Shown: in pieces, positions 17,351 to 57,964 of the stretch
Numbering within the stretch: the first letter of the stretch is position 1
How the letters are laid out: each line of letters starts with the position of its first letter
From: a virus
DNA length: 64,000 nucleotides
Virus record (IMG/VR): IMGVR_UViG_3300017527_000885
Reading direction: 5' to 3' (one strand)
Notes under the pieces: model-generated
The model's database searches: none
What the model was told of the DNA's origin: nothing
The model's input: the letters and a program-made list of their open reading frames with translations, nothing else
Program-made: the position numbers and the translations under genes

Positions 17351-17386
17351 ATTATACGCGACGAGAGGAACCAAGGGCAAGGTTAA
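17351..17386 (-). promoter_or_regulatory. promoter TAACC-TTGCCC-N18-TATAAT for the tail operon
   Basis: - strand reading: TAACCTTGCCC...CGCGTATAAT. Member of a 4-copy motif family (see findings). Confidence 0.55.
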
Positions 17387-17428
17387 TTACACCAGTTGCC
17401 CAACTCTAAGCGAAAATCGGGAAATCTA

Positions 17429-17437
17429 TGGTATAAT
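17429..17437 (+). promoter_or_regulatory. extended -10 promoter TGGTATAAT (near-leaderless)
   Basis: CTATGGTATAAT with the ATG only 6 nt downstream (17444). Same 12-mer as at 4335-4346. Confidence 0.5.
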
Positions 17438-17443
17438 GTACCT

Positions 17444-17665
17444 ATGAATACCACAAGACATGATATACTCAACGCAATCGACCAGCTTCCGGCTGATGCA
17501 AAAGCAGAACAAACCAAAAGGCACCTGGAAAGGATCGGAGGGGGAAGTGCCAAGCGCCAGGCCCAAAGTGTGATGGAAAACATCAACAAGGTTGGGGAGG
17601 TGGGGGCCAATGAGCTTGTGCACAAAATCTGGCTATTTCTGGCCGAGCAGTTACCCCCTAGATGA
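17444..17665 (+). CDS. hypothetical protein (73 aa)
   Basis: ATG at 17444 (MNTTRHDILNAIDQL...) right after the -10. The ORF-track start at 17396 lies upstream of the promoter. Confidence 0.4.
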   Translation: MNTTRHDILNAIDQLPADAKAEQTKRHLERIGGGSAKRQAQSVMENINKVGEVGANELVHKIWLFLAEQLPPR

Positions 17666-17812
17666 GATGGAGTTGCCCGATAAGAGACATATGCTGGAAG
17701 CAACGACGAGGGCGCGACGAACCAAGACAGAAAGAGTGCGGGTTTGAGATCGCAAACGCTGTTGAAGAATGCCCCCTGAAAGACTATATTAAAGCTAAGC
17801 AGGAGGAAATAG

Positions 17813-18010
17813 ATGAACGCGAAGATGTGTGACAGATGTAGAGAGGTGTACGGAGAGGATGAGGGTAGCACTTTGTTTCTCAAGATGGAAGAAACAAAGA
17901 GGCGGCAAAAGTCGTACTTGCTGGAAAGGGATGGCCTATGCCCAGGCTGCACCGACGAACTGGTAGCGTGGTTTGCACAGTTCAAGATCGAGGAGGGTGG
18001 AGATGGCTAG
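17813..18010 (+). CDS. small zinc-ribbon protein
   Basis: CDRC...CPGC, two CxxC pairs. 65 aa. Confidence 0.4.
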   Translation: MNAKMCDRCREVYGEDEGSTLFLKMEETKRRQKSYLLERDGLCPGCTDELVAWFAQFKIEEGGDG

Positions 18011-18323
18011 GAGGGTAACAGTAACACTGGATGATGGAACCGAGATTAGGGGCGATCCCACAAGTGACGAGTTTCTGGCTACCATCAAGGCCGTAGGTGG
18101 AGATGGAATAGTTTACTACTCGGAGAAGGATGGGGCTACTCCTATCGCAAATATGAATGTCCACCACGCCCAGAATGCTGTGCTCAAGATGATGCGGGAA
18201 GCAGCAGATAGACTACAGGCACACCTCGCAGAGCCAAAAGAGTTCAGGGACGGTATCATTGCCCTATTCAAGAATAGGACACTTTTGGCCCTCATTGCCC
18301 ACATCGAGGCGAACATCAAATGA
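17973..18323 (+). CDS. hypothetical protein
   Basis: 116-aa ORF. Confidence 0.35.
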   Translation: MHSSRSRRVEMARRVTVTLDDGTEIRGDPTSDEFLATIKAVGGDGIVYYSEKDGATPIANMNVHHAQNAVLKMMREAADRLQAHLAEPKEFRDGIIALFKNRTLLALIAHIEANIK

Positions 18324-19405
18324 CTAGCGGGCCGTTGGATAGCTCAAATAGAAACATAGATTTGGCCTTTACATTCGACACTACGGGTTCAATGTCCCCA
18401 TGCATTTTCGAAGTCAGACGGCGTATCACAGAAACCACAAAGCGCCTGTTCAAAGACCTTCCCGGTCTCCGGGTTGCGATACTGGCACATGGAGACTACT
18501 GTGACCGCGACAAAGCCTACGTGACCCAATGGATAGACTTTACGGCTGACTCACCTACCGTAGTAGACTTTGTAAAGAAGGTGGGCCGGACAGACGGTGG
18601 CGACGAGGCCGAGTGCTATGAGCTTGTGCTGCACGAGGCAAACCAGTTTAGCTGGCGGGATGATGCAGAGAAGGTGCTGGTCATGGTGGGTGATGAAGTA
18701 CCCCACCGAGCGGAGGAAGACCAGAACTTTCTGCATCTCGACTGGACAAACGAGGCTCAGAACTTGGCCGGGAGAGGCATTCTGATCTATGGAGTCCAGT
18801 GTCTACGCAAGCACTGGGCCGACTTTTTCTGGAAGGGCATTGCCCAGATCGGTAACGGTGTCAGGGTCGAACTCCACCAGTTCAGCAACATCGTAGAGCT
18901 AATCCACGCCGTGGCTTACAAGCAGGCTGGCGGCGAGGCTCTGCAGGGATATGCCAACGAGCTAGAATCAAAGGGAGAAATCACCCGCGCAATCGCTGGG
19001 TTCCTGGACATTCTATCTGGCAACAAGGTGACCTATACCATAGACCACGGAGCAATAGACCTTGAGGCGGTGCCTTTGGGCAGGTTCCAGATTCTCCATG
19101 CCGATAGCCGTATCGGGATCAAGCACTTTGTGGAGGAAACCGGGGCCGACTTCAAGATAGGACACGGGTTCTACGAGCATGTCAAGAAAGAGCTTGTCCA
19201 GGAGACCAAGGAGGTGGTGTTGGTACACAAGCGCTCTGGCGATATGTTCACAGGCCACAAGGCGCGAGATATGATTGGCTGCCCCTACGGTGAGCGGCTG
19301 AAAATCACCCCGGCGTTCTTGCCCGACTACGACGTGTTCATCCAAAGCACATCCTGGAACAGGATACTACCACCTAGCACTCGACTACTATACGAGCCTG
19401 TATGA
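18320..19405 (+). CDS. von Willebrand factor A (vWA) domain protein
   Basis: MIDAS-like motif FDTTGSM near the N-terminus. Overall vWA pattern (VAILAHGDY...GGDEAECYE...VLVMVGDEVPH). Confidence 0.6.
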   Translation: MTSGPLDSSNRNIDLAFTFDTTGSMSPCIFEVRRRITETTKRLFKDLPGLRVAILAHGDYCDRDKAYVTQWIDFTADSPTVVDFVKKVGRTDGGDEAECYELVLHEANQFSWRDDAEKVLVMVGDEVPHRAEEDQNFLHLDWTNEAQNLAGRGILIYGVQCLRKHWADFFWKGIAQIGNGVRVELHQFSNIVELIHAVAYKQAGGEALQGYANELESKGEITRAIAGFLDILSGNKVTYTIDHGAIDLEAVPLGRFQILHADSRIGIKHFVEETGADFKIGHGFYEHVKKELVQETKEVVLVHKRSGDMFTGHKARDMIGCPYGERLKITPAFLPDYDVFIQSTSWNRILPPSTRLLYEPV

Positions 19406-19977
19406 AACAATCCATGCAAGTGCTGGTCTCACACGAGACTACCGAATGGTATACTCCACCTGAATGGATAGAGAGATGCCGCAGGGTCTTGGGTCGCATT
19501 GACCTGGACCCTGCGAGTCATCCTGTGTGTCAGACTTGGATTCAGGCCGAGAAGTACTACACAGAGAAAGATGATGGGTTGTCCAAGACATGGAGCGGTA
19601 GAATTTTTTGCAATCCACCGTATGGGAAAACCGGAAGCAAAAGCAATCAACATATCTGGGGCCAGTACCTGGTCGATGAAATCAGGATTGGGAATGTAAT
19701 TGAAGCGATCTTGCTGACCAAGACGGTGCCAGGGTACCAGTGGTGGGATGATATGTTCAATGGGCTTTGGCCTGGGCCAGTATGTATCACGCGGGGCCGC
19801 ATACCCTTTGTCAGGCCCACGGATGTACTGTTATCTCCGGGTGGTGCGGTAGACCTGGGGGCATATGACCCGAGAAAGCTGAGTAAGGCTGCATCCTCAT
19901 TCTGGTACTATGGCCCACACACCTATGCTTTCCGCCGAGAGTTTCAAACAGTTGGGAGGGTGATTGATCCGAAATGA
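19402..19977 (+). CDS. DNA N6-adenine methyltransferase (phage Dam-like)
   Basis: Catalytic motif IV NPPY (RIFCNPPYGKTGSK). Small size, typical of the phage Dam family. Confidence 0.6.
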   Translation: MKQSMQVLVSHETTEWYTPPEWIERCRRVLGRIDLDPASHPVCQTWIQAEKYYTEKDDGLSKTWSGRIFCNPPYGKTGSKSNQHIWGQYLVDEIRIGNVIEAILLTKTVPGYQWWDDMFNGLWPGPVCITRGRIPFVRPTDVLLSPGGAVDLGAYDPRKLSKAASSFWYYGPHTYAFRREFQTVGRVIDPK

Positions 19978-20233
19978 GAAGCGTGATAGTGCGCATAATC
20001 GAGCTATAGGCACAACACAAAAACACCTGGCGCGATAAGCCCGAGCGGTATTGGTTTTTCTCCCTGCTGGAAGAGTTCGTAGAACTGGGCTTTGCTCTTA
20101 TTGGCCTACACAAAGGGCCTGTAGACTGGGAGCTACTGCAAATCTCCACAATCTGTGCAAACTGGATAGAGTATCGTGAAGAAAAAGGGAAATAACGCAC
20201 TAAAGCACATGCTGATTCAGCAGTTTCTGGCTA

Positions 20234-20629
20234 ATGCTGGATACCGGGTTGAGCAGAAAAGTGGGCGAAGGATTAAAAAAGATGCCAATAAGAGGCTGTG
20301 AGGGGTTTGTAGATTACGACATTGTTACGATGGTAGGAAACTATTTCCATGAGCGTGGTCTGAAGTGGCCTGAGAACGCTGACGAAGCCCTGATGTGGGC
20401 ACAGACCGAACTTGCGGAAGCCTACGAACTCCTGTTAGCCCGTAAGGGTGGATGGACTCGGAACAACCCAGAAGAACATCCCCCATTCGACAACCAGAAA
20501 CTGGCCGAAGAACTGGGGGATGCTATTATGATGATCATTGTTGCAGGTATCGTTGAGGGGATTTTTCCCCTAGCTGCCCTGCGCCGAAAGATCGAATGTA
20601 AGCTAGCTCAACTCAGCGATAGCAGTTAG
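20234..20629 (+). CDS. MazG-like nucleotide pyrophosphohydrolase
   Basis: EAxE-type motifs (TELAEAYELL and AEELGDAIMM). The true start may be the internal ATG (MPIRG). Confidence 0.45.
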   Translation: MLDTGLSRKVGEGLKKMPIRGCEGFVDYDIVTMVGNYFHERGLKWPENADEALMWAQTELAEAYELLLARKGGWTRNNPEEHPPFDNQKLAEELGDAIMMIIVAGIVEGIFPLAALRRKIECKLAQLSDSS

Positions 20630-24010: not shown

Positions 24011-24019
24011 CTTATTCTC

Positions 24020-29958: not shown

Positions 29959-29992
29959 ATTCTAACGCCGGAACAATCCGATGGCAAGGTTA
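29959..29992 (-). promoter_or_regulatory. promoter TAACC-TTGCCA-N17-TAGAAT
   Basis: - strand: TAACCTTGCCATCGGATTGTTCCGGCGTTAGAAT. It overlaps the stop of the Ser/Thr-rich gene and lies about 20 nt upstream of the next ATG. Confidence 0.5.
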
Positions 29993-32900
29993 GTACTCTG
30001 TGTTAGCTGTCCCGGTGACGCGTACCTTCACATTGCTGGTACCAGTGATCTTTACGCTGACGTTGCTTGTTACTGTTGACTTTATCTTTGCGTCAGAAGT
30101 GCCCGTTAGGCGTGCCTCTGCATCCGAAGTCGCCGTGAGGCGCACCTCCGTGCTTTCCGTGTATTCCAGCAGTGTTGTAGTTGTACTTGTTAGCGTTGTA
30201 GTTGTCGAGGTCGAGCTAGATGTTGTAGTGCTGGTTGTAGTTGATGTACTGGTAGAACTACTGGTTGTAGTCGTACTAGTCGAAGTTGAGGTCGAGGTGG
30301 ATGTACTCGAACTGGTTGTAGTGGTCGAAGTACTGGTCGAAGTACTTGAAGAAGTTGTCGTAGTACTGGTACTGGTTGACGTACTGCTTGACGTGGTGGT
30401 CGTAGTACTGGTGCTAGTTGACGTACTACTTGATGTGGTGGTTGTAGATGTAGACGTACTTGTACTGCTCGATGTGGTCGTAGTTGAAGTGGATGTGCTC
30501 GTAGATGTGGATGAACTAGTTGTGGTTGTGCTAGTTGACGTACTTGTGCTAGTTGAACTACTCGTGGTGGTAGTTGACGTGCTTGTGCTGGTTGAGCTAC
30601 TGGTCGTGGTGGTGCTAGTTGATGTGCTGGTCGAGCTACTGGTTGTGGTAGTTGATGTGCTCGTTGACGTGCTTGTAGAACTCGACGTGGTAGTAGTCGA
30701 GGTGCTAGTGCTCGTACTGGTCGTGGTAGAAGTACTTGAGCTTGTCGTGGTAGTCGAGGTCGAGGTAGACGACGAGGTAGTAGTGGTGCTGGTCGATGTT
30801 GAGGTAGTCGAGGTAGTAGATGTGCTTGTGAGCGAAGTGGTAGTCGAGGTTGAGGTGCTGGTGCTGGACGAAGTTGTGGTGGTAGATGTGCTTGTGCTGG
30901 TTGTAGTTGACGTAGACGATGACGTGGTAGTTGTGCTGGTTGAGCTACTGGTTGTGGTGGTGGATGTACTCGTAGACGTGCTGGTAGAACTTGACGTAGT
31001 AGTAGTAGACGTGCTTGTGCTGGTTGTAGTTGATGTGGACGAGGATGTAGTAGTTGTGCTAGTGCTAGTTGACGTACTTGTAGATGTCGAGCTTGACGTG
31101 GTGGTAGTGCTCGTGCTAGTGCTCGTAGACGTAGATGACGACGTGGTAGTAGTGCTCGTGCTCGTGCTGGTACTCGTAGATGACGATGTAGTGGTTGTGC
31201 TAGTACTGGTGGATGTGGTTGTACTGGTAGAGCTTGACGTTGTAGTTGTGCTGGTTGAAGTCGATGTTGTAGTAGACGTGCTCGTAGATGACGATGTGGT
31301 AGTAGTAGACGTGCTCGTAGATGTCGTCGTGCTAGTCGAGCTACTGGTTGTAGTAGTAGATGTGCTGGTGCTAGTTGTCGTAGACGTAGATGAGGATGTG
31401 GTGGTAGTAGACGTGCTGGTGCTGGTTGAGCTACTAGTTGTGGTCGTGCTAGTAGATGTAGAAGTTGACGATGATGTAGTGGTAGTAGAAGTACTCGTGC
31501 TAGTTGTCGTGGAAGTCGAAGATGATGTAGTGGTAGTACTGGTTGATGTAGATGAGGATGTGGTAGTGCTGGTAGACGATGACGTGGTTGTCGTGCTAGT
31601 GGAGGTAGAGGTCGTGGTAGACGTACTAGAACTCGTTGTAGTGGTGCTCGTAGAAGTGCTGGTGGTGGTGCTCGTGGACGTAGTTGCCCATTCCAGGATC
31701 ACATCATCCACTTGGTATGGCAGCGTTGTCGTAGTACTGGTAGATGTAGACGACGAGGTAGTAGTGGTACTGGTCGATGTGCTTGTAGTTGTCGATGTAC
31801 TAGACGATGTGGTGGTAGTTGATGTGGATGTCGAGGTTGAAGTTGAGGTCGAGCTTGATGTGGTTGTGGTGGATGTAGAAGTCGAAGTTGTGGTTGAGGT
31901 AGATGTAGTCGCGGCGGCGACCAGAGTACTAATCCTGAGTGCAGACATTCCAACACTGTCGCCCACCGTCTGTCCTAGACCAGCCGAGGAAGCCTGAAAG
32001 AACTCAAACTCAATCTCGTCATCAACCGCGAGGGCGGCCATGAAGCTGCCAGAAAAAGCGGCATCGTATGTGGCGGTGCTGCTCTGCAACCCTCGCATAT
32101 ACTTAATGGAAATCTCTTCCTGATTCGCGTCGTTGTTAGTCCACCTTAGACCATGCTGGCTACGTGTACCCGTGGAAGATGCACGGTTGATCCTAGCCCC
32201 AACCGTGAACAAATAATCATCCTCAACCTCTACCTCAATGGTGGTATTGTCATTCCTTGTGAATGAAGCTGCATCTATCGTTGGGGTAGTTCTGCACGCA
32301 TTGAGGTAGCCAGTGGCGGTTGTTTCCTGCGCACCTGTTGCATCGTTGCCAATTACAACCTCGGCGGAGCTTGGTAGCTCCATCACAAACAGGCCACTCT
32401 CCCACCCAGCCGTAGCACTTCTGGCACCAGAAGTGCTGCTAGCGCCCTGATACACCTCTATTTGTAGGTCTAGATTCTCGGTGTCATTGTCTACAATGAA
32501 AATACAGGATGCAGTCTCATAGTCTGTGTCGGTGTCACGCAAATACAGCGCACTGTTACTCTGCGGAATAATCGTTCCATCTAGCGTGGCACAGACAACC
32601 CTTGCCGCACGAGCGGTGCCCGCAAATGTCACATTGTACGCTACCAAATACCGTGCTATCGACTTGAGCGTGATGGCCTCGTTGTCAACTCCCTGAATCT
32701 CAATTACGCCCGTGTCGGTTTCCTCGGTTGTGGTGTCGAACATCAGCGGGGCAAAGGAACCGGAGTTGTAGGCACCAGTGTCGGTGCCCTCGGCGTACAA
32801 CCCAAACGCAACAGCGGGTGTAACATCAGCCAGCTTGATTAGTGCTAGCTCCGAGTCTGCGGTTGCATCGTCTGTGGGAGTGGAATCCTCTCCACGGGTC

Positions 32901-33271
32901 ATGTACTCCACGCGGAAGTCTGCACCCGTGCTGGTTACCTTGAAGATACAATGGCCCCCCGCACAAATCTCGTCATCTTCATTCTGCCGCATAAAGTTGG
33001 CGCTGCGACCGCCTACGATCTCGCTACTGTTCCACAAGGCCCGAACAGCACCAATCATGCGGCTATCTGACTCGCCAACAGTCCTCACCCGATAGATCGC
33101 CAGGTAATACCCAGTCTCATCTATTTGTACATCTATGTCATTGGCATCTTGGACAAAAATGGCCGCTGGCGTACCGACAGGAGCAGAAAACTCCACGCCT
33201 TCCCAGCTATCCTCTGACGTTGGGAGCGCGAAGGTGCCTACCCTATATTTTGCGGTATCACCAATAGGCAT
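29990..33271 (-). CDS. mucin-like Ser/Thr-rich fiber protein (putative O-glycosylation substrate)
   Basis: 1093 aa. A globular N-terminal domain of about 450 aa, then about 590 aa of near-pure (T/S) repeats (TTSTSTSTTTTSSSTS...), then five C-terminal tandem 10-aa beta repeats (RLTATSDAEA/RLTGTSDAKI/KSTVTSNVSV/KITGTSNVKV/RVTGTANTEY). Confidence 0.6.
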   Translation of the reverse strand: MPIGDTAKYRVGTFALPTSEDSWEGVEFSAPVGTPAAIFVQDANDIDVQIDETGYYLAIYRVRTVGESDSRMIGAVRALWNSSEIVGGRSANFMRQNEDDEICAGGHCIFKVTSTGADFRVEYMTRGEDSTPTDDATADSELALIKLADVTPAVAFGLYAEGTDTGAYNSGSFAPLMFDTTTEETDTGVIEIQGVDNEAITLKSIARYLVAYNVTFAGTARAARVVCATLDGTIIPQSNSALYLRDTDTDYETASCIFIVDNDTENLDLQIEVYQGASSTSGARSATAGWESGLFVMELPSSAEVVIGNDATGAQETTATGYLNACRTTPTIDAASFTRNDNTTIEVEVEDDYLFTVGARINRASSTGTRSQHGLRWTNNDANQEEISIKYMRGLQSSTATYDAAFSGSFMAALAVDDEIEFEFFQASSAGLGQTVGDSVGMSALRISTLVAAATTSTSTTTSTSTSTTTTSSSTSTSTSTSTSTTTTSSSTSTTTSTSTSTTTTSSSTSTSTTTTLPYQVDDVILEWATTSTSTTTSTSTSTTTTSSSTSTTTSTSTSTTTTSSSTSTTTSSSTSTSTTTTSSSTSTTTSTSTSTTTTSSSTSTSTSTTTTSSSTSTSTSTTTTSSSTSTTTSTSTSTTTTSSSTSTTTSTSTSTTTTSSSTSTSTTTSTSTSTTTTSSSTSTTTSTSTSTTTTSSSTSTSTSTSTTTTSSSTSTSTSTSTTTTSSSTSTSTSTSTSTTTTSSSTSTTTSTSTSTTTTSSSTSTSTSTSTTTTSSSTSTTTTSSSTSTTTSTSTSTTTTSSSTSTSTSTTTSLTSTSTTSTTSTSTSTTTTSSSTSTSTTTTSSSTSTTTSTSTSTSTTTTSSSTSTSTSTSTTTTSSSTSTSTSTTTTSSSTSTSTSTTTTSSSTSTSTSTSTTTTSSSTSTSTSTSTTTTSSSTSTSTSTTTTSSSTSTSTSTTTTTSSSTSTSTSTTTTSSSTSTSTSTTTTSSSTSTSTSTSTSTTTTSSSTSTSTTTSTTTSSSTSTTTTLTSTTTTLLEYTESTEVRLTATSDAEARLTGTSDAKIKSTVTSNVSVKITGTSNVKVRVTGTANTEY
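30150..31920 (-). repeat. low-complexity tandem codon repeats encoding poly-Ser/Thr
   Basis: About 1.8 kb of imperfect repeats (GTAGTTGTGCTGGT-type units on the + strand). They yield a spurious V/L/D/E-rich + strand ORF at 30000-31997. Confidence 0.8.
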
Positions 33272-33615
33272 TAGTTACAGACCTCTGTACAGCACTTGCA
33301 ATTTACCAAGAAACACTCATACTGCCAATCATGGGGGCACTCATCGCAGGGGCAAGGGCGCAGATAATGGGCCAGGGTGAGATAGGCCTTGTCTTTCCTG
33401 CCCTCCTTCTGGTTCTTGATATGACTTATATCAACCAGTATAGCGTTGGGCTGATTCTCCTCAATAGACCCCTCGATAATAGTAATCTCGTCCTTGATCT
33501 GATGCCACCGAGCAACAATGTACGGAAACTCCCAGTCTTCAACCATGCGGTCACCATAGCTATTAACACAGAATAGCCATTCTACAAGCTTCTTGGGCAG
33601 TCCGCTATTGTTCAT
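33271..33615 (-). CDS. hypothetical protein with Cys-rich C-terminus
   Basis: 114 aa ending CPCDECPHDWQYECFLVNCKCCTEVCN. Confidence 0.35.
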   Translation of the reverse strand: MNNSGLPKKLVEWLFCVNSYGDRMVEDWEFPYIVARWHQIKDEITIIEGSIEENQPNAILVDISHIKNQKEGRKDKAYLTLAHYLRPCPCDECPHDWQYECFLVNCKCCTEVCN

Positions 33616-34748
33616 TAGCTATCGTATATCTCCCTGACCTGCACGTAGCGCCACTCCCGATCCAGGGGCGCGGAATAGGTTGTCCAAGCTGGGTTTACAT
33701 CATCCTGGGCAAATGTGCTAGTATCACCCCGAATCTGTAAGGTTGCATCCTCTTGGCCTGCACCATATCTATTCTCAGTAAGGGTATAAGTGCGGACATC
33801 CGAGTTGCCAAAATCATAGACCGCGCTACGCCCCTCCTCATTGAAATTAAGTTCTAGCTTGCCCCAATCCGAGTCACCGTCAATAGTAGGTGTTCCAGCG
33901 GCACCATCGCTCCAGGTCTGCCAGCTAACAGCGGTCTCTCCCTCTGTAGGAGACTCCTCACCAAATGCCAAGCCACCTGTTGGAGCCAGCGTGGTGGTTG
34001 TCGTAGTGCTGGTTGATGTGCTGGTACTAGACGAAGTTGTGGTGGTAGATGTGCTTGTGCTAGTACTAGTTGTGGCACCAGTCTTATAAGACAGCATCGA
34101 GGTTGCAGGGTAAATAACCGCAGGGTGATCAACAATTGTGGGGCTACCAGAGTCAGCCAGATGCTGCCCACTAACTCGATCCTGGTCACCATCCCGAATC
34201 AGCGGGTAGTAGTGAACTAGGTTTTCTGGCTTGACAAATAGGGGTGAGTACCCAGCCGCCAAAATCAGTGCGTCGGCAGCGGTCAGAGCCACGTTCCAGA
34301 TAGCCACCTCGCCTGCCATACCAGACAGGTACAGATCGGCAAAACTGAATGTAGCACGGGCCACCCGCACTTGGTCTAGGTCTGCTACGGATGTATTATC
34401 TGTGTTGGTGGTCGTATTCACCCCATCACAGTAAATGGTGCGACTAGAGGTAGAGGCAAACACAGCAAGGCCATAGTGCCAAGTGTTAGTCGATAGCACA
34501 CTTGCCACCTGTGCATTCTTCGCCCCAGCACCGCCGTAGGTGTATGCTTCGAGCGGGTCGTTAAGTACGTCACCCCGAATAGCCATGGCGCACATATCGT
34601 TATCGCTGTCATCCCCGACTGATGCCACAACCTGACGCAACGTGAGCGAATCGGTTTGAAAAACCGCAGCTATGGAAATAGGGGTGCCCGTGACAAGCGA
34701 AGTGCCCTCTAGATATTGAGAACTGCCATCATCAAACCCTCTAGCCAT
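33615..34748 (-). CDS. structural protein with a poly-Ser/Thr linker, possibly a concanavalin/LamG-like lectin fold
   Basis: 377 aa. Central GATTSTSTSTSTTTTSSSTSTSTSTTTTTT tract. The N-terminal part has a beta-rich LamG-like character (weak). Confidence 0.35.
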   Translation of the reverse strand: MARGFDDGSSQYLEGTSLVTGTPISIAAVFQTDSLTLRQVVASVGDDSDNDMCAMAIRGDVLNDPLEAYTYGGAGAKNAQVASVLSTNTWHYGLAVFASTSSRTIYCDGVNTTTNTDNTSVADLDQVRVARATFSFADLYLSGMAGEVAIWNVALTAADALILAAGYSPLFVKPENLVHYYPLIRDGDQDRVSGQHLADSGSPTIVDHPAVIYPATSMLSYKTGATTSTSTSTSTTTTSSSTSTSTSTTTTTTLAPTGGLAFGEESPTEGETAVSWQTWSDGAAGTPTIDGDSDWGKLELNFNEEGRSAVYDFGNSDVRTYTLTENRYGAGQEDATLQIRGDTSTFAQDDVNPAWTTYSAPLDREWRYVQVREIYDS

Positions 34749-35611: not shown

Positions 35612-36436
35612 CTACAAATACTCTCTATATATCTCGGGGTCTGTCCTTACCCCACTCTTGCCCCAGACATCACAGTCCGGGTCCCACAACCCCTCATCTC
35701 CAAAGCCCTTGGTGGACAGCTTGTTCCAAAAGGGCCGAGCGTGGGGCAGTGCCACATTGTAACCCGTGGGTTCATCCTTGGACTGTCCCCAATGATGCCA
35801 AATCCATGAATAGCTGGTGGACAGGGCGCGAAATCCCGCCTGGTAAATACGAGAGTCCATATCATAATCCTCACCACCTCCTGGAAAGAACCGCTCGTCA
35901 AAAAGCCCAACCTTCTCGATCCATTCCTTCCTTCTAAATGTGACCATCCACATAGCTATGCCATCGACAACCGCACCCTTCTTCTCTTCCCTGAGCCTTT
36001 GAATGTTCTCTGGGTGCCGGGCATCCTTTAAGCTGAGATGTATTCGGTATCCTTCCTCACCATACCCCCATCCCGGCTCTTTGGGCGACATAGGGGCTAC
36101 AGCTATGGCATTGTCAAACCTCTCAAAGGTCTCAATAATGCCAGGCCACCAGCCCTGAAGAAAGATCACATCGTCATTGGCTATGGTAACGTACTCGGTC
36201 TGACATAGCCGCACCCCTATGTTGGCAGCCTGTGCAAACCCATAGTTCTTACTCGTAGTAACCACGACATCGGCCTGCTCTCGCAACTCCTGCTCGAACT
36301 CGGGAGCGGGTTTAGTCTGATTGACCACTATAGTATTATAGTTGCTGGGTGTGACCTCGCGCAAGGTTGATAGCGCGGGAAGAATGAAATCCTGGCGAAT
36401 AATAGGAAACACAAAGGTATTTATGAGATTCGACAT
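35612..36436 (-). CDS. glycosyltransferase family 2
   Basis: TSKNYGFAQAANIGVRLCQTEYVTIANDDVIF, a GT2 signature. Confidence 0.55.
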   Translation of the reverse strand: MSNLINTFVFPIIRQDFILPALSTLREVTPSNYNTIVVNQTKPAPEFEQELREQADVVVTTSKNYGFAQAANIGVRLCQTEYVTIANDDVIFLQGWWPGIIETFERFDNAIAVAPMSPKEPGWGYGEEGYRIHLSLKDARHPENIQRLREEKKGAVVDGIAMWMVTFRRKEWIEKVGLFDERFFPGGGEDYDMDSRIYQAGFRALSTSYSWIWHHWGQSKDEPTGYNVALPHARPFWNKLSTKGFGDEGLWDPDCDVWGKSGVRTDPEIYREYL

Positions 36437-41676: not shown

Positions 41677-42945
41677 TTATCCCTCCCAGGTATGGAACAG
41701 CGGTTCAATAAACTTTTTGAACACATAGTCTGGATTGCGCTCCTGTCGAATCCTGCGCTGTTGAGCCAGTACTATGTTGTGCTGTAGCTCATAAGCAACC
41801 CGGAGAGCAATCGAGTGGAAATAGTCATCCACATCCTCGTACTCTGTTGTGGTCGTGCCGTCATTGCCAGTGAGTGCGTCAATGTTGGATGAGAACTGGT
41901 AATAGGCTGCATCCGGGCCGTAGATGGAGCGCATTGGTGGGAAGTCCCGATTGAGAATAAGCATTGCCCCACACAGAGCAGCCTCTTGGGCAATAAGACT
42001 GTACGTTTCAGAGCGACTGGGCATTACAAACACGTTGCACAGAAGCATCAGATCGCGGATAACCTCACGGGGCGATCTAGTCTTTAGGCTGTCATCGAAC
42101 TGTGACAGGAATGTCATCTCATTGTCATCTAGGCCCAAGTCTATCGCTAGACTGGCGAGGTGTTCACGGTAGTTGACCTTATCCCCACCAGTGCTATGAA
42201 AATCGGCACAGATAACCCGCACGCTTCGACCAAGCTTCTTGAGCGCAGCCCCTGTGCGGATCACGTACTCAACCTGTTTACCCCTATCTAGCCTCACTGG
42301 ATACAAAAGGATTGCGTCAGCTTCGAGCAACCGCTTCTCATACACCAGTTTCTTTGTGATGTCCTGGAAGCCAAGATAGCCACACACATCGGTGGAGTGG
42401 GGTACGACAGCTACCGTATCTATCTCACAGCGGAAGTTTCTGGCAACGCGGGGAACATCAAAGGCATTAGGGAAAATAATATTGGTGCGCTCTGGGTGAA
42501 TCTGTACAGGGGCCAGTTTGGGATTCACTGCCCACATGGGGCTAGGGGAAGCGGAGTGTATCCAGTGAAGCCAGCCCACATCTGGATGCTCCCTTGCATA
42601 ATCGTGCGCAGCAAAGTTGTGACACATAAGGGCTGCCTGATAGATCAGGTCGTGGGTAATAACAACGTCCAGGCCATTGAGAGCAGCATTAAAGCTCTCG
42701 CGCAACTTGGTTACATTGTCCTCCCAGCCCTCATAGAACTCAATCTTGTTTGACTTGCGCACAGAAGGAATGTGACGTAGCTCAACATCACACCACACAC
42801 GCTCTGGCGAGAATCCCTCTTCCACAATTGCCACAGGCTCATAGCCCGCTCGTAGCAACATCCCCAATTGCTCTTCCGCCACAATCGTTAGAGAATATGT
42901 GGGGTCTGGGGATGCAAAGTCGGTCAGAATGCCGATTCTTTTCAT
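41677..42945 (-). CDS. glycosyltransferase, GT-B fold (GT4-like)
   Basis: VFVMPSRSETYSLIAQEAALCGAMLI. Confidence 0.5.
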   Translation of the reverse strand: MKRIGILTDFASPDPTYSLTIVAEEQLGMLLRAGYEPVAIVEEGFSPERVWCDVELRHIPSVRKSNKIEFYEGWEDNVTKLRESFNAALNGLDVVITHDLIYQAALMCHNFAAHDYAREHPDVGWLHWIHSASPSPMWAVNPKLAPVQIHPERTNIIFPNAFDVPRVARNFRCEIDTVAVVPHSTDVCGYLGFQDITKKLVYEKRLLEADAILLYPVRLDRGKQVEYVIRTGAALKKLGRSVRVICADFHSTGGDKVNYREHLASLAIDLGLDDNEMTFLSQFDDSLKTRSPREVIRDLMLLCNVFVMPSRSETYSLIAQEAALCGAMLILNRDFPPMRSIYGPDAAYYQFSSNIDALTGNDGTTTTEYEDVDDYFHSIALRVAYELQHNIVLAQQRRIRQERNPDYVFKKFIEPLFHTWEG

Positions 42946-43336: not shown

Positions 43337-43924
43337 CTAGCTCTCCTGGTAGTATTCTAACACGATGGAGATATCCTTTGCGGACCCGGCCTTATTTGTC
43401 ACCCTGGCTAAATAGTCGGTGGACTTGGCAAGTATCCACTCTGCGCCAGAGCGGGCATCTCCCCCAACGGCCTGATTCTTCTGGCCGCCTGGTATAAACC
43501 CAGCAGCCAACTGTGTTCCAGCACTACTAACGGTGGGAGTGTGACGCACATCGGCATCAGATGCATCGGTTCCATCCTCTCGATTCATATTCCTGGGGGT
43601 AATTGCTGTGCCTATGGCAGATGTTGTGGTCCCTGAGTAAAGATAGAAATAAGCATCCCCACCAGCAACCACGGCTATAGCGGAGTGCAGTTCCTTATTT
43701 GCCCCAACCTTAATCAACATATCCGCATTTGCATCATCCCCAATCGTTGTGTACAGATGCGAGGCATGGTACATCCCGGCCTCATGCACCTCTGCATGTG
43801 CAACAAGAATGCCCTCACCTGCACCAACCTTACTGTCAACGCCCTGATTTGTAGTACCGTCCCAACTTATTGTTTTATCCGCCTTGCTTCCCATTACTCT
43901 TTCCTCTGATAGTTCTTCTCCCAA
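43337..43924 (-). CDS. hypothetical protein
   Basis: 195 aa, Ala/Gly-rich. Confidence 0.35.
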   Translation of the reverse strand: MGEELSEERVMGSKADKTISWDGTTNQGVDSKVGAGEGILVAHAEVHEAGMYHASHLYTTIGDDANADMLIKVGANKELHSAIAVVAGGDAYFYLYSGTTTSAIGTAITPRNMNREDGTDASDADVRHTPTVSSAGTQLAAGFIPGGQKNQAVGGDARSGAEWILAKSTDYLARVTNKAGSAKDISIVLEYYQES

Positions 43925-44637
43925 GCTTTGTACTGGCGGAAATGAGCCTGTGTTATCACGGAATTACCTATATGACCACACTGCACATTAAGATCACAAT
44001 ACACTTTGAAACCAGCCTCCCCGGCCTTGCGGCAAAATACTACATCTTCGCCAGTTGCCGGGTTTGGCCCCAAGTAACGAGGCACCTTTATTGCCTCTAC
44101 AACCTTGCGTTCAATAAGAACACAACCAAACCCCATGGAGTCGCATTCCATCAAGCTGTTCTGGAACTGCATCACGGCAGGCTCGAGAACGATGGGAACT
44201 TCATATTCCTCAAACCAATCCAGAACCTCCTGGCTCATGGACATTGTGCCGCCATCCTCGGTGGCCTCATAAACCAGGGCAAACGGTGACTTGCGCCTCC
44301 CGAAATATAGCGAACCGACCATTGGCAACTTGTGCTGGTATAGGGTGTAGATAGCCCCTGGCGGAAGCACCATATCGCTGTCAATAAAACAGAGGTGTGT
44401 AGCGTCCTCAATCTTCAGGAACTCCTTCGTCATCTGTTCCCGACCCTCGTGAATGTAGGTTGGCTGTATCGCCCCCACGGTCCACGATACATTTTGGCGG
44501 GACAGATAAGTAAGAGCAGCATCAAGCGAATCAACATACTCCCACATACCGAATCGCTCTCGTAGTGTCACAACAACGATCTTGTCCTTCCGGGCAGGGT
44601 TTCCCTGTTTCCTCATCTTTTTCTTCCGCTTTTTCAA
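43894..44637 (-). CDS. putative GT-A-fold glycosyltransferase (paralog of 53434-54114)
   Basis: CFIDSDMVLPP...VGSLYFGRR is similar to FIVDCDMLIPQ...ISGLYFSRG in the other gene. Downstream of a TTGCCA-18-TATAAT promoter. The likely start is the internal ATG (MRKQG). Confidence 0.4.
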   Translation of the reverse strand: MKKRKKKMRKQGNPARKDKIVVVTLRERFGMWEYVDSLDAALTYLSRQNVSWTVGAIQPTYIHEGREQMTKEFLKIEDATHLCFIDSDMVLPPGAIYTLYQHKLPMVGSLYFGRRKSPFALVYEATEDGGTMSMSQEVLDWFEEYEVPIVLEPAVMQFQNSLMECDSMGFGCVLIERKVVEAIKVPRYLGPNPATGEDVVFCRKAGEAGFKVYCDLNVQCGHIGNSVITQAHFRQYKAWEKNYQRKE

Positions 44638-44650: not shown

Positions 44651-44685
44651 ATTATAAGGGTTGGGGTGATCCAATGGCAAGGTTA
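44651..44685 (-). promoter_or_regulatory. promoter TAACC-TTGCCA-N18-TATAAT
   Basis: - strand: TAACCTTGCCATTGGATCACCCCAACCCTTATAAT. It is embedded in the 3' end of the upstream epimerase gene. Confidence 0.5.
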
Positions 44686-50495: not shown

Positions 50496-51355
50496 GTGTG
50501 TTTCTCCAACTCGCGGTCCAGTCGCTCCTGTAGCGAGTCTATCGCTAGACTGATGACCTCGGGATGCTCCCCTTTGAATGGCTCGGTCCTGCTATGCATT
50601 CTGTTCACAGGCCATAGCTCGTGGACTCCATCGTACTGTTCCTCGACTTCTTCCCTCTTTCCCAGAACCCAGGGAAGGTAAACCCGGTTAAAGTAGTCCG
50701 GGATAGTCCGCTGTGGCGATCTCTGGAAGTAGTATTCAGTCTTTGTCTTGACCTGAGATGGGAAAACATAACTGTAATGATAGATTCTCAGGTCATACTG
50801 AAGCAGGGTCTGACCGCCCAGGGTGCTTGGTTTATCGCCGTCTGGCAGGAGAATTGTTGGAGGGCGATGTGTCAACCACTTGGCCCCTGGGTAATACCGT
50901 TGCACCCTGCGCCAAATGGCCTTTTCCTCATGTCCGGTCATGTAGTAATCAAAGCCCCCATAGAATGAGTAGGGCTTAAACTCTACGCTGTCATATCCAT
51001 ATTCATCTATCTGTTGAACGATAAATTCTAGGTCATCCGGCTTATACACTTCGTCAGAGTCGACCATCCACAGGTGCGTGGTGTCATCAGGGACCAGATG
51101 CATAGCAGCATTCATCATATAGTCTTTCTCGATGAATGCACCGCTCACTACCCCTAGTATCCCATGCCCATAGTTCCGGTATTCCTCTAGAATTTCCAGG
51201 GTTCTGTCAGTGCTACCAGTAAAACCGCGACTGCGCCAGTAGTCCACTGGCCCCTCAGTAACGACCAGGGGGCCAAAGGGAAGAATGGACTGCAAGACCT
51301 GCTCGAGAACATGATCCCCGTTGAACACTATCATTTGGAAAGTTATCTTGGGCAT
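50492..51355 (-). CDS. putative glycosyltransferase (GT-A-like)
   Basis: ITFQMIVFNGDHVLEQ...VDSDEVY. Weak. Confidence 0.3.
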   Translation of the reverse strand: MPKITFQMIVFNGDHVLEQVLQSILPFGPLVVTEGPVDYWRSRGFTGSTDRTLEILEEYRNYGHGILGVVSGAFIEKDYMMNAAMHLVPDDTTHLWMVDSDEVYKPDDLEFIVQQIDEYGYDSVEFKPYSFYGGFDYYMTGHEEKAIWRRVQRYYPGAKWLTHRPPTILLPDGDKPSTLGGQTLLQYDLRIYHYSYVFPSQVKTKTEYYFQRSPQRTIPDYFNRVYLPWVLGKREEVEEQYDGVHELWPVNRMHSRTEPFKGEHPEVISLAIDSLQERLDRELEKHT

Positions 51356-51359
51356 AGTC

Positions 51360-53228: not shown

Positions 53229-53467
53229 TGGTCGCTTTCAGCATTAGGGTCTGTGGCCGGATTAACGTCCTCTGCTAGCTGCTTGCCAAGCAGAAGAATC
53301 TGATCGAGGGCTGCAACAGCGCCCTTGTGCTGGTTCAATTCACCTATCAGGTCCTCTATCTGATCCTCTATCTGGTCTTTCCTTGCCAGGTGTTGCTGTC
53401 TCATTTGGACCAAGTGATTTCCGGTTAACTGTGTCATTTTTCTCTCTCCCTTAGATAATTTGTCCAT
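53225..53467 (-). CDS. small coiled-coil protein
   Basis: 80-aa ORF. Confidence 0.3.
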   Translation of the reverse strand: MDKLSKGERKMTQLTGNHLVQMRQQHLARKDQIEDQIEDLIGELNQHKGAVAALDQILLLGKQLAEDVNPATDPNAESDQ

Positions 53468-54114: not shown

Positions 54115-54291
54115 CCCTGAACGGGGCGTAAGCCCCTCTGGAAAGGCGGGTTTCCCGCCCTGTAAAAAGATAACCGTAGACCATTCTCAGAATAGCCTAC
54201 GGTTCTTTCTGCTGGATAATTCGGCATGGCTCTGTCTCCATACCGCTAATAGCGGTAAGTCTATTGTACAGTGTGATACACTGGTTGTCAA

Positions 54292-54666: not shown

Positions 54667-54800
54667 TTCTTTCTCCTTAAAGACTGCGGGGCGCTAGATG
54701 CGCCCCACATAGGCGCGGAAACAGACCTCCGCGTAAGGTCGGTGCAGACTATAGACCTCTGCACAGGGTCGATATTCAGAGACGGAAAACCCGCTCTTTG

Positions 54801-55049
54801 TTATTCGCTCTCGGCGTGTCGTGAATTGCCGTGCTGTTCGAGGTGGCCGGGAAGAACAAACCTAGCGCCACACTCGCTACACTGGAATAGGTCGCCCTCT
54901 TTGATTCCACTTGCTTCAAGAAGACGAGCTAGCTCGTTGCGCAGTAGCCCCGCATCATTCTTGAGACCTTTCATCTCAAAGACCTGTCCACGGTCTAGCT
55001 GCTTCCCGCCATACACGTAATCACGCTCGGCGTATGCTAATGTACTCAT
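54801..55049 (-). CDS. C2H2-type zinc-finger small protein
   Basis: FQCSECGARFVLPGHLEQHGNSRH gives C-x2-C-x12-H-x5-H. Confidence 0.45.
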   Translation of the reverse strand: MSTLAYAERDYVYGGKQLDRGQVFEMKGLKNDAGLLRNELARLLEASGIKEGDLFQCSECGARFVLPGHLEQHGNSRHAESE

Positions 55050-55121
55050 TTTGATCTCCTTTCGAGACTAGGGGGCGGGTGTTACCCCGCCCTTTTCTCA
55101 GAACAAGAGTTGCTTGCTAGA

Positions 55122-56093
55122 CTAGTCTACGATATCGCTGAAGAAAACGCCTGCGTTTGCCACAGTCGCCTTCTGGTCGAAGTACGAGCGAACCTCAACA
55201 TAGTCACCTAGACGCTCAGTGTCGCGGTACTTGCGAATCCACTGTGGGCCACGGCCTGCGTTGCCAGAAGTCTGCCACACGAAAGTGTAGCCTGCTGCTG
55301 GGTTCATTAGGGATGGGCGCTGAGGAACGTACAGAAGAAGTGCGTCGTCATCCCAGTTCGCGGAGTAGGTCACGCTACCTTCAGCAAGACCTTCCTCGTC
55401 AGCGGTGTAGAATGAGGTGCCTACCAAAACCTTGTCCACGCCGAATAGGGTTGCCAGCAAGTCCTTGTTGGCAATACCAGTCTGAGTGTACTTGATCCTG
55501 TCCAAAACGTCTGGGTGGTCAAGTAGCTTGTCGAAGGTTAGGTCGCCCAAAACTAGAGTGTTGGGGGTACGGGCGATCATTCTACGGGAAGTGCGCTTGT
55601 AGGTACGAAGGTCCACGATAGGATCGGATGCACCAAAGTCTGACCACTTGGTCACTGTGGTTGTTCCGGTCACATCGGTTGTCCATACACCAGTCTTCCA
55701 GAAGTCGGCAACGAAAGCCCTCTCGCGCCTCATCTGTAGCTTGTCGGTTACGAACTCAGTCGCATCGCGGTCAATCTCGAAAGGACTGTCCTGGTTGATG
55801 CGCTGGTCATCGGAAACAAAGTACCTGAGACCGAAGCGGTCGCAGTAGTATGTCGCCGTGGTTGTAACCTTGAAACCGCTGGATGGTGCAATCCCGGTCT
55901 CAGCGATTCGGTCTGCTTCATCCCTGAACCAGTGTGACTGGTCATACTCGGGGATGATGTCAGTTTGCTTGCTCACTAGAACAAGCGGGAAAATCTCATC
56001 AGCGATGTACGTTTCGTTGATGTAAGCCAATGAAAGATTGGTCAACATCTTATTTACGTGAAGATCGCTGGCTGCTGGCATAATTACGGCCAT
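55122..56093 (-). CDS. putative major capsid protein (HK97-fold)
   Basis: 323 aa. Position after the scaffold gene. Composition and length typical of a major capsid protein. Strong RBS. Confidence 0.55.
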   Translation of the reverse strand: MAVIMPAASDLHVNKMLTNLSLAYINETYIADEIFPLVLVSKQTDIIPEYDQSHWFRDEADRIAETGIAPSSGFKVTTTATYYCDRFGLRYFVSDDQRINQDSPFEIDRDATEFVTDKLQMRRERAFVADFWKTGVWTTDVTGTTTVTKWSDFGASDPIVDLRTYKRTSRRMIARTPNTLVLGDLTFDKLLDHPDVLDRIKYTQTGIANKDLLATLFGVDKVLVGTSFYTADEEGLAEGSVTYSANWDDDALLLYVPQRPSLMNPAAGYTFVWQTSGNAGRGPQWIRKYRDTERLGDYVEVRSYFDQKATVANAGVFFSDIVD

Positions 56094-56111
56094 TTTTCAT
56101 TACCTCCCTTA

Positions 56112-56498
56112 TTATGTAGCTAGGTATGAGCAACCGAAGAATACGATCTCTGCAATATCGCCTGCAGAGCCGCATCCGTAGGTGCATACACCAAGCCAGC
56201 GTTCTCCGGCATCGGAGCCGGGAACAACAACTGCCGCCTGACCATCTGTGCTAACACCAACTGGGTCATTAGCGCTCAGGGCCTCGTCTGCAGAAACCTT
56301 CGAGTGGCCGAAAATCCTAACTAGGGCTTCCTGACCAGTTGTGGGCTTGTTCTGCAGAATACCGATGGCATTATCTGTCGTACCATCGCAGGCATCAACT
56401 TGACCATTGCCGGAAATCTCAACAAAGTAGTACTGCTTACTCGATAGATCATTCTCGGCCTTGAAACTTACGTCCTGTCCATCATACTGTTTCGCCAT
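56112..56498 (-). CDS. hypothetical head protein
   Basis: 128 aa between the scaffold and capsid genes. Confidence 0.35.
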   Translation of the reverse strand: MAKQYDGQDVSFKAENDLSSKQYYFVEISGNGQVDACDGTTDNAIGILQNKPTTGQEALVRIFGHSKVSADEALSANDPVGVSTDGQAAVVVPGSDAGERWLGVCTYGCGSAGDIAEIVFFGCSYLAT

Positions 56499-57739
56499 TA
56501 CTCAACCTCCTGCATCTGACGCATGGCCTTGGTAGTAGCCTTGTCGTATTCTGCGTAAAGCTCTGGCTCCTGTACAGCTACAACCTCGATTGCATCTGCA
56601 TAGCTCTTGCCTGACTCTTCCGCGTGCTTGCGGACTGCAGCATCGAACCTGCTGGTTGCATCGTTGTTTGTGCTATCACTACCAACCTCGCTCAAAGCTC
56701 CAACCTCTGCGGCATTACCCATCGCCTTCATAATCGCCAACAAGTCCTTGTACTCTGCCTCGCCAACCTTGTCGGCAAATTCGAGCATCAAAGGAGCAAC
56801 CTTCTCGACCTCGACAGGTAGTGTCTCGATCTCAGAAAGCTCGTCGGAGAACTGGCGGAGTCTTTCCGCGTGCTCTGCCTCGGCCAACTTTGCAGTGTGG
56901 GTCTCAAGCTGTGCTTGGGCCTCAGCTAGCTGCTCGGATAGAGTGGTAATCTCAGTTACCTTGTCCTCTAGCTCTGCGGCCTGCTCATCGACCTTGGCTT
57001 CTAGTTCCTTACTCATTTCTTCGTCCTCCTCTTCGTCCTCGGTAGGTTCTTTTTCTACCACTGGTGTTGCTTCTGGCTCTACTACTGGCTCAACTACTGG
57101 TTCCGGTTCCACTATTGGTTCCGCCTCCGGTTCCGGTGCTGGCTCAGGCTCCGCTGTTACTGCGGTAGCTAGCTCATCGAACTTGACCTTCAATTCAGCA
57201 AGCCCAAATGCAATAGGAGCTACGAAAGCCTTTAGCTGTTCGCTAAAATCCAAACTCATAGTTTCCTCCTCTGCTGGGTCGTCTTCGACAACCCATTCTC
57301 CATCGGAAAACACGGCTGCTTGCCTTCCCAGGCGAGGCCTTGGAGTCAGGGCCACACCTACAGCCACATTGTTGTGTGTCTTGCCGTCTAGAGCCTGATA
57401 CTGCCTGAACTGAATCTCGGGGCTTGCATACTTATAGCCCTTGCTCTTGATCTCTTCGGCTTTCTCATCTCTAAACTCTGGCTTCCACTCAACATTCCCG
57501 GTATCTCCCACTCTCAGGTCACCAACATATCCAAACACACCGTGTTCGTCTTTGTGAAGCATGTTGATGGGGAGATCGTAGTCAGGCACCTTCTTCTTGA
57601 AGTTTGATACTAGCTCACTCGCATCGGTCTTTGTAAATTTGATGCGCTTGCCTCGGTGCCAGACCGTACCCACCGGGAAAAACAGCCTCCAGTCAGTATC
57701 AGTTGCGTCAAACGGAATAAAGTATCTCATTTCACTCAT
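56498..57739 (-). CDS. putative capsid scaffolding protein (globular N-terminal domain plus acidic coiled-coil)
   Basis: 413 aa. EPEPAPEPEAEP linker. Long Glu/Ala-rich coiled-coil C-terminal half. Position upstream of the capsid gene. Confidence 0.45.
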   Translation of the reverse strand: MSEMRYFIPFDATDTDWRLFFPVGTVWHRGKRIKFTKTDASELVSNFKKKVPDYDLPINMLHKDEHGVFGYVGDLRVGDTGNVEWKPEFRDEKAEEIKSKGYKYASPEIQFRQYQALDGKTHNNVAVGVALTPRPRLGRQAAVFSDGEWVVEDDPAEEETMSLDFSEQLKAFVAPIAFGLAELKVKFDELATAVTAEPEPAPEPEAEPIVEPEPVVEPVVEPEATPVVEKEPTEDEEEDEEMSKELEAKVDEQAAELEDKVTEITTLSEQLAEAQAQLETHTAKLAEAEHAERLRQFSDELSEIETLPVEVEKVAPLMLEFADKVGEAEYKDLLAIMKAMGNAAEVGALSEVGSDSTNNDATSRFDAAVRKHAEESGKSYADAIEVVAVQEPELYAEYDKATTKAMRQMQEVE

Positions 57740-57828
57740 CTTAATCCATTCGCCCTCCCCGTTTTTGCGCCAGTCTTTGGCTATTTGGAACGCCTTGCTT
57801 CATCATCTTACTGGCGCATTTAGGTAAC

Positions 57829-57865
57829 AAAAAAAGCAGCAAGTGCAAAAAATCGCACCTGCTGC
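57829..57865 (-). terminator. rho-independent terminator (- strand)
   Basis: - strand: GCAGCAGGTGC-gattttttg-GCACTTGCTGC followed by TTTTTTT. Confidence 0.6.
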
Positions 57866-57930
57866 TCGAATCAGATACGCGACTAACTAAAAACTAGCTT
57901 CCCAGAACTTTACTTCCCCCGTTATTGTAT

Positions 57931-57964
57931 AGTATATGGAAAAAAGTAACACAGCGCAAGGTTA
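57931..57964 (-). promoter_or_regulatory. promoter TAACC-TTGCGC-N17-TATACT
   Basis: - strand: TAACCTTGCGCTGTGTTACTTTTTTCCATATACT. It lies upstream of the terminator and the scaffold gene. Confidence 0.4.

Follow-up and report, generated by a model that had tools for sequence, protein, structure and literature searches.

The DNA considered here is a 64,000-nt segment of the viral record IMGVR_UViG_3300017527_000885 (the window), and our subject is a short element, the box TAACCTT, that recurs ahead of promoter-like -10 hexamers on its "-" strand. The window is part of a tailed phage, has ~52% G+C and is probably not the whole genome. Along the "-" strand it holds a terminase-like gene, a Mu-type portal gene (Pfam Portal_Mu), genes for a 404-aa phosphoesterase and a 99-aa protein (p99), an M23 peptidase gene, protease/scaffold, scaffold-like and major capsid genes, then ~20 kb devoted to sugar-nucleotide and glycosyltransferase genes, two fibre genes with S/T repeats, connector-like genes, the gene of a 1135-aa M23 protein and the tail genes. 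The "+" strand carries the replication genes plus two small blocks. We propose that the box marks a clade-specific class of promoters for structural and glycosylation genes, in which the -10 element of the host's primary sigma factor would be combined with a dedicated upstream box; judging from sequence comparison, we give this reading a probability of roughly 0.6.

Box sites in the window

The window has exactly four copies of TAACCTTGC, each on the "-" strand (17385, 29992, 44685 and 57964), and a regular-expression scan adds a fifth "-" strand site, cAACCTTGCGC-N18-TATAAT at 36369-36335 (Table 1). An earlier note on this DNA had listed four "-" strand positions; all four are present, but site 1 begins at 17385 and not at 17386, and the fifth site had been missed. 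The surroundings that the note had named for these four (a tail gene, the stop of an S/T-fibre gene, the 3' end of an epimerase gene and the region after an M23 gene) are as described, and reading the sequence bears out its -10-like hexamer 17-18 nt after each TTGC. All five sites have a -10 that matches at 5-6 of 6 positions (TATAAT in three, TAGAAT and TATACT in one each) and a spacer of 17-18 nt, with no TGn extension, and their -35-like hexamers (TTGCCA, TTGCCC and TTGCGC) agree with TTGACA at 4-5 of 6 positions. Sites 2 and 4 are identical at 16 of 17 positions in the core.

The pattern AACCTTG[AC]-N18-21-TA.A.T was observed 5 times against 0.05 expected, and 300 first-order Markov simulations gave at most 2. 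GGCAAGGTTA, whose three copies on one strand the note had thought more than expected, indeed occurs 3 times against 0.08 expected, a count reached in none of 100 shuffles. With a weight matrix of the 17-nt core, the five sites scored 17.9-23.8 bits and the next best match, on either strand, 13.2; because they outscore every other match on both strands, the family is closed. With this matrix, the scan of both strands, which had been proposed as a check, returned five sites, all on the "-" strand and in the direction of the genes, and nothing else above 13.2 bits. The region is ~97% coding (~3% non-coding), yet four of the five sites lie at gene boundaries. Site 3 is truly intragenic, since the Pfam Glycos_transf_2 match of the gene around it begins at residue 15. 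The 131-aa gene after site 1 heads the tail block and, by synteny, encodes the major tail protein. A possible hybrid on the "+" strand, at 4363, scores 17.1 bits versus 22.9-25.5 for the five sites and is without the downstream G-W-Y element described below; its membership in the family is uncertain.

In silico, the family is closed, strand-specific and positionally conserved, carries primary-sigma -10 elements and heads structural-gene units. We regard the five sites as very probably promoters. That such internal promoters sub-divide the long structural operon, as had been suggested before, is well supported in silico because the sites join sigma anatomy to gene-wise orientation, stand at boundaries in four cases out of five and have orthologues for three sites.

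Table 1. Box sites of the window, a possible hybrid and the terminator after site 5 (numbering of the whole stretch)
Feature	Coordinates	Strand	Box	-35-like hexamer	Spacer	-10 hexamer	Setting
Site 1	17351..17385	-	TAACCTT, 17385-17379	TTGCCC, 17380-17375	18 nt	TATAAT, 17356-17351	160-bp divergent intergenic region; predicted start ~17344; ATG (17283) of the 131-aa first tail gene 67 nt downstream
Site 2	29959..29992	-	TAACCTT, 29992-29986	TTGCCA	17 nt	TAGAAT, 29964-29959	TAA of the box is the stop codon of the 1093-aa S/T-repeat open reading frame; ATG (29937) of a 104-aa BppU_N-like gene 21 nt after the site; conserved 337-aa gene next
Site 3	36335..36369	-	CAACCTT, 36369-36363	TTGCGC	18 nt	TATAAT, 36340-36335	within a family-2 glycosyltransferase gene (35612-36436), ~codons 22-34
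Site 4	44651..44685	-	TAACCTT, 44685-44679	TTGCCA	18 nt	TATAAT, 44656-44651	box encoded in the C-terminus (D-N-L-A-I-G-S) of a Pfam Epimerase gene, -10 overlapping its stop codon; glycosyltransferase-like gene (43894-44637) downstream
Site 5	57931..57964	-	TAACCTT, 57964-57958	TTGCGC	17 nt	TATACT, 57936-57931	20 nt past the stop of a Peptidase_M23 gene; downstream, protease/scaffold (56498-57739), scaffold-like (56112-56498) and major capsid (55122-56093) genes
Possible hybrid	4363..4396	+	CAACCTT	canonical TTGACA, fused to the box	17 nt	GATAAT	precedes a block with a DnaB-like helicase gene
Intrinsic terminator	57834..57867	-					15-bp stem and T7 run; fold -36.4 kcal/mol, z = -4.2; ~65 nt past the site 5 -10 and ~95 nt before the protease/scaffold ATG

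The box in related phages

A query with the capsid protein retrieved a clade of metagenomic phages with 41-76% identity, of which those with 61-76% capsid identity were compared at the DNA level, a 93%-identical capsid homologue lying outside this comparison. No close relative was found in INPHARED, IMG/VR, JGI metagenomes or GTDB genomes, queries with the tail protein and the 337-aa protein had no match in viral contigs, and a pattern scan of IMG/VR for the exact window motif gave 10 single matches, consistent with chance. By tblastn synteny, the gene order of compact relatives (L001, L007) is terminase, portal, p99, protease, scaffold, capsid, a zinc-finger open reading frame (ORF), further genes, the 337-aa gene, connectors, a 349-aa glycosyltransferase-like gene, the major tail gene and the tape measure gene. 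Three insertions set the window apart from this order, namely the M23 gene, ~25 kb of sugar, glycosyltransferase and fibre genes, and the 1135-aa gene together with a "+" strand block. Sites 5, 2 and 1 are the exact points where the core gene order resumes after the insertions, and the other two, sites 3 and 4, are within the island.

TAAGGTT-N21/22-TAnnnT was counted in nine non-redundant relatives (86.4 kb): 15 copies are on the coding strand and 0 on the other, against 0.12 expected, and for the bare box the counts are 20 against 2. Positional orthologues with a box exist for site 5 (head operon), site 4 (glycosyltransferase gene) and site 1 (major tail gene). For site 5, the orthologue precedes the gene of the protease or ChaB-protease in L001, L002, L004, L007, L122-L125, L127, L128, L157 and L158. 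The head promoter reads TAAGGTTGC-N-TA(A/G/T)A(A/T)T in L002, L004, L122, L123, L124, L125 and L128, TAAGGTTGTAG in L127, TAACTTTGCGA-N17-TATACT in L001 and CAACCTTG in L007, L157 and L158/L159, and in four relatives, closer or equidistant (capsid identity 76%, 76% and 62%), the box there is CAACCTT, as in the window. Orthologues of the gene downstream of site 4 were located in L002 (8431), L004 (6675), L122 (6179) and L128 (6182), with an intrinsic terminator ahead of each, followed by TAAGGTT-N21/22-TA(C/A/T)A(A/G)T; promoters of the L002:8431 type read TAAGGTTC, and a site 4 equivalent is also present in L124. L002 has an extra box promoter between a Dam gene on the opposite strand and the portal gene. 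The orthologue of site 1 in L001, at 17100, is TAAGGTT-N21-TAAAAT (TAAGGTTGGCA-N17-TAAAAT), upstream of the homologous 133-aa major tail gene. With a matrix built from the window sites alone, as an independent check, the orthologous head promoter comes out as the top match in L001 and the third in L007. Relatives that keep the box span 42 to 55% G+C. In L157, a 110-kb relative, cgtgaccctattataccacaaa is seen at two divergent promoter regions, 8100-8125 and 16300-16325, each adjoining a CAACCTT.

A logo of 22 promoters anchored on the box reads T-A-A-S-S-T-T-(G-C)-N5-G-W-Y and then TAnAAT, with the -10 beginning 21-22 nt past the box. Within the box, T is present in 20 of 22, A-A in all 22 and T-T in all 22, and the central S-S is GG in 15, CC in 6 and CT in 1. 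The box is followed by G (16/22), C (14/22), five unconserved positions and the downstream element, G (18/22), W (20/22) and Y (22/22), which lies ~11 bp below the box centre on the same face of the DNA. The -10 in relatives is TA(A/C/G/T)A(A/T)T. Upstream of the box, the columns hold 0.1-0.6 bits, are not A/T-rich and show nothing conserved beyond -41, and spacers and flanks are otherwise unconserved. The upstream region as a whole amounts to ~16 bits, far above natural -35 regions. The G of TTG, the base that sigma-70 -35 elements conserve best, gives way to T or C in six of the 22 promoters, with TAA..TT invariant or nearly so; since spacers and flanks are also unconserved, selection appears to act on the box and not on a sigma-70 -35 hexamer.

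The same genome has a second class of promoters. A consensus scan found canonical TTGACA-16/17-TAnnnT at + 2351 (12/12), + 4368, + 25063, - 58778 and - 54291, and TTGAAT at - 9392; these TTGAnn-class promoters precede replication, HNH, M23 and accessory genes. The box is missing from five of the six, the exception being the CAACC-TTGACA hybrid at + 4363/4368. Ordinary TTGACA promoters are therefore clearly used by the host polymerase, and the box class is distinct from them. Two members, at - 9392 and - 54291, have in common GTGTATCAC, a GTG..CAC inverted repeat in the same spacer register (9374-9382 and 54273-54281), which suggests a separate operator. TATAAT followed after 6 nt by ATG is found at 17432-17446 (+) and 9355-9369 (-), from which leaderless mRNAs are predicted for the first gene of a "+" block and for the 263-aa gene that ends the tail block.

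Candidate readings of the box

Based on these comparisons, we propose a mechanism for the box promoters. The -10 of the host primary sigma factor (TAnAnT) would be kept at its normal distance, and the upstream element would be the clade-specific TAA-SS-TT at ~-40 to -34 (TAACCTT in the window), then a weakly kept GC, with the small second element G-W-Y about one helical turn downstream, at ~-26 to -24. A dedicated protein, most likely encoded by the phage, would read the box; it would recruit or re-target the host RNA polymerase and replace the contact of sigma region 4 with the -35, either as an activator or as a substitute for sigma region 4. Such promoters would restart or boost the core structural genes past each interruption (the M23 moron, the sugar/fibre island and the opposite-strand block) and would also act inside the inserted island, and the use of a factor would separate them in time or strength from the TTGACA promoters of replication genes and morons. 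The involvement of a dedicated factor has, in our estimation, slightly better than even odds; we infer it because many clade members are without a usable -35, because plain TTGACA promoters serve other genes in the same genome and because conservation of the box tracks the phage clade across its range of G+C contents. A 65-aa zinc-ribbon protein (CxxC...CxxC), encoded at 17813-18010 (+) in the divergent block beside site 1, has no Pfam, PHROG or PDB match and is conceivable as a small regulator.

Several observations weigh against this proposal. A scan of ~67 ORFs in this window, which is probably not the whole genome, gave no transcription-factor, sigma, MotA/AsiA, Mor/C, Ogr or Q-like domain, and searches of the early and small ORFs against Pfam, PHROGs and PDB sequences gave no DNA-binding regulator. 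In the window, TTGC(C/G)(A/C)-17/18-TATAAT agrees with the sigma-70 consensus at 10-11 of 12 positions, so host polymerase alone could suffice, and the element may be a host-specific extended -35 instead of a dedicated box. Site 3 lies inside a gene, transcripts from site 5 must read through a strong terminator to reach the capsid genes, and the label "late" derives only from the downstream genes. The central bases of the box also vary (GG in relatives versus CC, with both CT and GG in L001), and a sequence-specific factor must therefore tolerate this difference or have co-evolved with it.

A rival account is that these are ordinary constitutive host sigma-70 promoters, where TAACC and G-W-Y are extra contacts for sigma region 4 or the alpha C-terminal domain, as in an extended -35 or UP element, that aid an imperfect TTGC, with no phage factor. 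The good consensus match, the correct spacing, the box combined with a perfect TTGACA at + 4363 and in the L007 head promoter, and the absence of a factor from the ORFs scanned all agree with it, but the loss of the G of TTG with retention of TAA..TT is the reverse of what sigma-70 selection would give, most TTGAnn-class promoters of the genome do without the box, and the information upstream far exceeds that of natural -35 regions. UP elements, of the rrnB P1 type, are A/T-rich tracts at -40 to -60 contacted by the alpha C-terminal domains; the box, unlike these, ends at -34 and is G/C-centred, and the DNA upstream of it is neither A/T-rich nor conserved. We consider the sigma-70 account possible but rather unlikely. 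Of the two alternatives in the earlier note, that TAACC is an UP-like element or a factor site, the comparative data favour the dedicated-factor site, because the G/C-centred box abuts or overlaps the -35, its upstream flank has neither property of an UP element and TAA..TT outlasts TTG. Other regulatory readings fare worse. The box could be the operator of a repressor, either stoperator-like or a dyad AACC-N8-GGTT, that silences otherwise constitutive promoters: in the window an imperfect dyad AACC-N8-GG(T/A)T is centred near -32, site 3 is nearly palindromic and the sites are multiple and face one way, like the stoperators of mycobacteriophage L5. Stoperators are asymmetric repeats in one orientation at many sites, mostly not promoters; here, every copy of the box above background is coupled to a -10 at a fixed distance, many box promoters of relatives have a poor -35 that would need activation and not repression, and neither integrase nor repressor was seen in the window. 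The dyad AACC-N8-GGTT, which sites 1 and 3 had suggested, was dropped as the main reading, the AAGG...G-W-Y of relatives not being a dyad, and an operator role is very improbable. Alternative sigma signatures, checked by hand for spacing, all fail: the extracytoplasmic-function signature (AAC...CGT) fits site 1 only and the sigma-54 signature (GG-N10-GC) site 5 only, the spacing of the sigma-28 signature (TAAAGTTT-N11-GCCGATAA) falls short by 5-6 nt, and that of sigma-H is also too short. Chance similarity, or functionless scars of recombination or duplication, could be read from the near-identity of sites 2 and 4, but is scarcely credible against the excess over expectation in both the window and the relatives, the strict strand bias, and positions kept across phages of 61-76% capsid identity whose spacers and flanks have fully diverged.

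The terminator after site 5 raises a further reading, in which a lambda-Q-like antiterminator would load at the box: polymerase initiated there would pass terminators such as 57867-57834, and polymerase coming from upstream would stop. A site 5 transcript reaches this terminator at ~95 nt, no credible promoter was found between it and the protease ATG, and the order of promoter, terminator and capsid operon is also seen in L007 and L009 and, by eye only and not folded, in L158; the conserved G-W-Y, moreover, lies in the spacer, where the Q-binding element of lambda is located. However, a terminator just downstream is missing at four of the window's five sites and in most relatives, including those with TAAGGTT, the +1 to +6 stretch has no consistent -10-like pause element, the domain searches gave no Q-family match and the terminator may simply be leaky. 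Since the other four sites are without such terminators and no Q-like protein was found, this reading stays a minority one, and we think it unlikely. The data suggest either that box-initiated polymerase may be terminator-resistant or that the terminator may leak. A combined model, held only tentatively, is that TAA-SS-TT...G-W-Y would be the site of a clade-encoded protein that takes over the upstream polymerase contact, in the manner of sigma appropriation with unrelated parts, and that in some members (the window, L007 and L158) would also carry polymerase past the leader terminator at the head promoter.

Three "-" strand units share one layout of a promoter, a structured RNA of ~90-115 nt and a strong intrinsic terminator (58778-58632, 57964-57826 and 54291-54165). 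The first runs from TTGACA-16-TAGACT at 58778 to a terminator at 58654-58638, the second from site 5 to its terminator, and the third from TTGACA-17-TACAAT at 54291 to a terminator at 54204-54172. Their folds have z-scores from -4.2 to -6.1, and neither Rfam nor tRNA searches gave a match in the window or the leader regions. The third has a counterpart by position in L158 (5832-6026), with GCCATGCCGAAT in common. These units may be phage small RNAs or regulated leaders.

The dedicated-factor proposal recalls known stage-specific classes of phage promoters that keep the host -10 and use a phage element for the -35, namely those of T4 MotA, Mu C/Mor, P2 Ogr and lambda CII. As in T4 middle promoters (MotA/AsiA), the host -10 is kept, a phage box replaces or overrides the -35 and the class stands apart from canonical early promoters; however, the MotA box, (a/t)(a/t)(a/t)TGCTTtA, is centred at -30, whereas TAASSTT lies at ~-40 to -34 with G-W-Y at ~-26, the window's TTGC is still a fairly good -35, and homologues of MotA and AsiA were not detected among the ~67 ORFs by Pfam or PHROGs. 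Likewise, in Mu (Mor/C) and P2/P4 (Ogr/Delta) four or five promoters with one upstream element split the late region, with a -10 present and, in many clade members here, a weak -35, and the portal is of the Mu type, but the Mu C site is a dyad at ~-43.5 and the P2 site is TGT-N12-ACA at ~-55, unlike this short, asymmetric element that abuts or overlaps the -35 with no conserved sequence upstream of -41, and Pfam gave no Mor, C or Ogr (Ogr_Delta) domain match. Site 5, a sigma-70-type promoter with a strong terminator within ~100 nt and head genes next, resembles lambda PR'-tR' (Q), except that this layout holds at one of five sites, without a Q homologue or a clear promoter-proximal pause element in register. 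Lambda CII promoters (TTGC-N6-TTGC straddling the -35) also have two short elements that flank the -35 about one helical turn apart, and share TTGC; here, the elements are TAASS and G-W-Y with no TTGC direct repeat, and structural and not lysogeny genes are served. Because its sequence, position and symmetry differ from all of these and no homologous factor is detectable, we place the box outside these families. Searched as a string in the literature, the motif matched nothing but unrelated primers.

Inserted modules, host and use of the signature

The inserted island (~29990-54114) encodes sugar-nucleotide enzymes, many glycosyltransferases, methyltransferases and the two S/T-repeat proteins (29990-33271 and 33615-34748), and comparable islands with sulfotransferases are present in L157 and L158, which suggests glycosylation of the fibres by the phage itself. 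The M23 gene (57984-58625) separates the p99 and protease genes, neighbours in L002 and L004, and has an extended -10 promoter of its own, TGcTATAAT, with the hexamer at ~58625-58630; it has the look of an inserted moron. Immediately behind the major capsid gene, an 82-aa ORF (54801-55049, -) has a C2H2-like zinc finger, CSECG...H...H, that scores 21 bits with Pfam zf-C2H2, below the cutoff. It is found at the same position in most of ~40 relatives, including G+C-rich ones (tblastn E < 1e-4 in most loci). A 16-bp palindrome with the core (A)GTCTAGCGATAGACT occurs exactly three times, inside three unrelated genes, and a variant, AGTCTATCGTTAGACT, stands at the junction of the portal stop and the next gene (positions 8904-8917, 42138-42151, 50536-50549 and 60209-60224). 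With up to 3 mismatches there are 13 matches versus 4 expected, and the palindrome may be the binding site of a dimeric protein.

In the searches for a host, there was no megablast match in INPHARED, no exact protein match and no match for the terminase query, the capsid protein was absent from GTDB genomes, and the unannotated terminase-like gene has homologues solely in related metagenomic contigs. The best protein matches in cultured phages are 34-37% identical, to Arthrobacter, Rhizobium and Pseudomonas phages, the DegT aminotransferase has only 45% matches scattered across many phyla, and the label "Anaerolineae bacterium", from metagenome-assembled genomes, is attached to two distant relatives only. 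TTAA is strongly under-represented over the whole window (observed/expected 0.35), ACGT stands at 0.51 and CTAG is not depleted (0.95); there are no HIP1 sites in the window. This pattern could reflect host restriction systems or host composition.

For a phage clade known only from metagenomes, the box provides a precise and testable late-promoter signature of ~16 bits, which can be used to annotate transcription units in these genomes and to search for a binding factor by DNA pull-down. It also lets one ask how inserted modules, such as the ~25-kb sugar/glycosyltransferase and S/T-fibre island or the morons, gain the resident promoter type. If a dedicated factor does read the box, it would represent a new way of re-targeting host polymerase, and if that factor also carried polymerase past the leader terminator, the capsid genes would be expressed only from factor-loaded polymerase.

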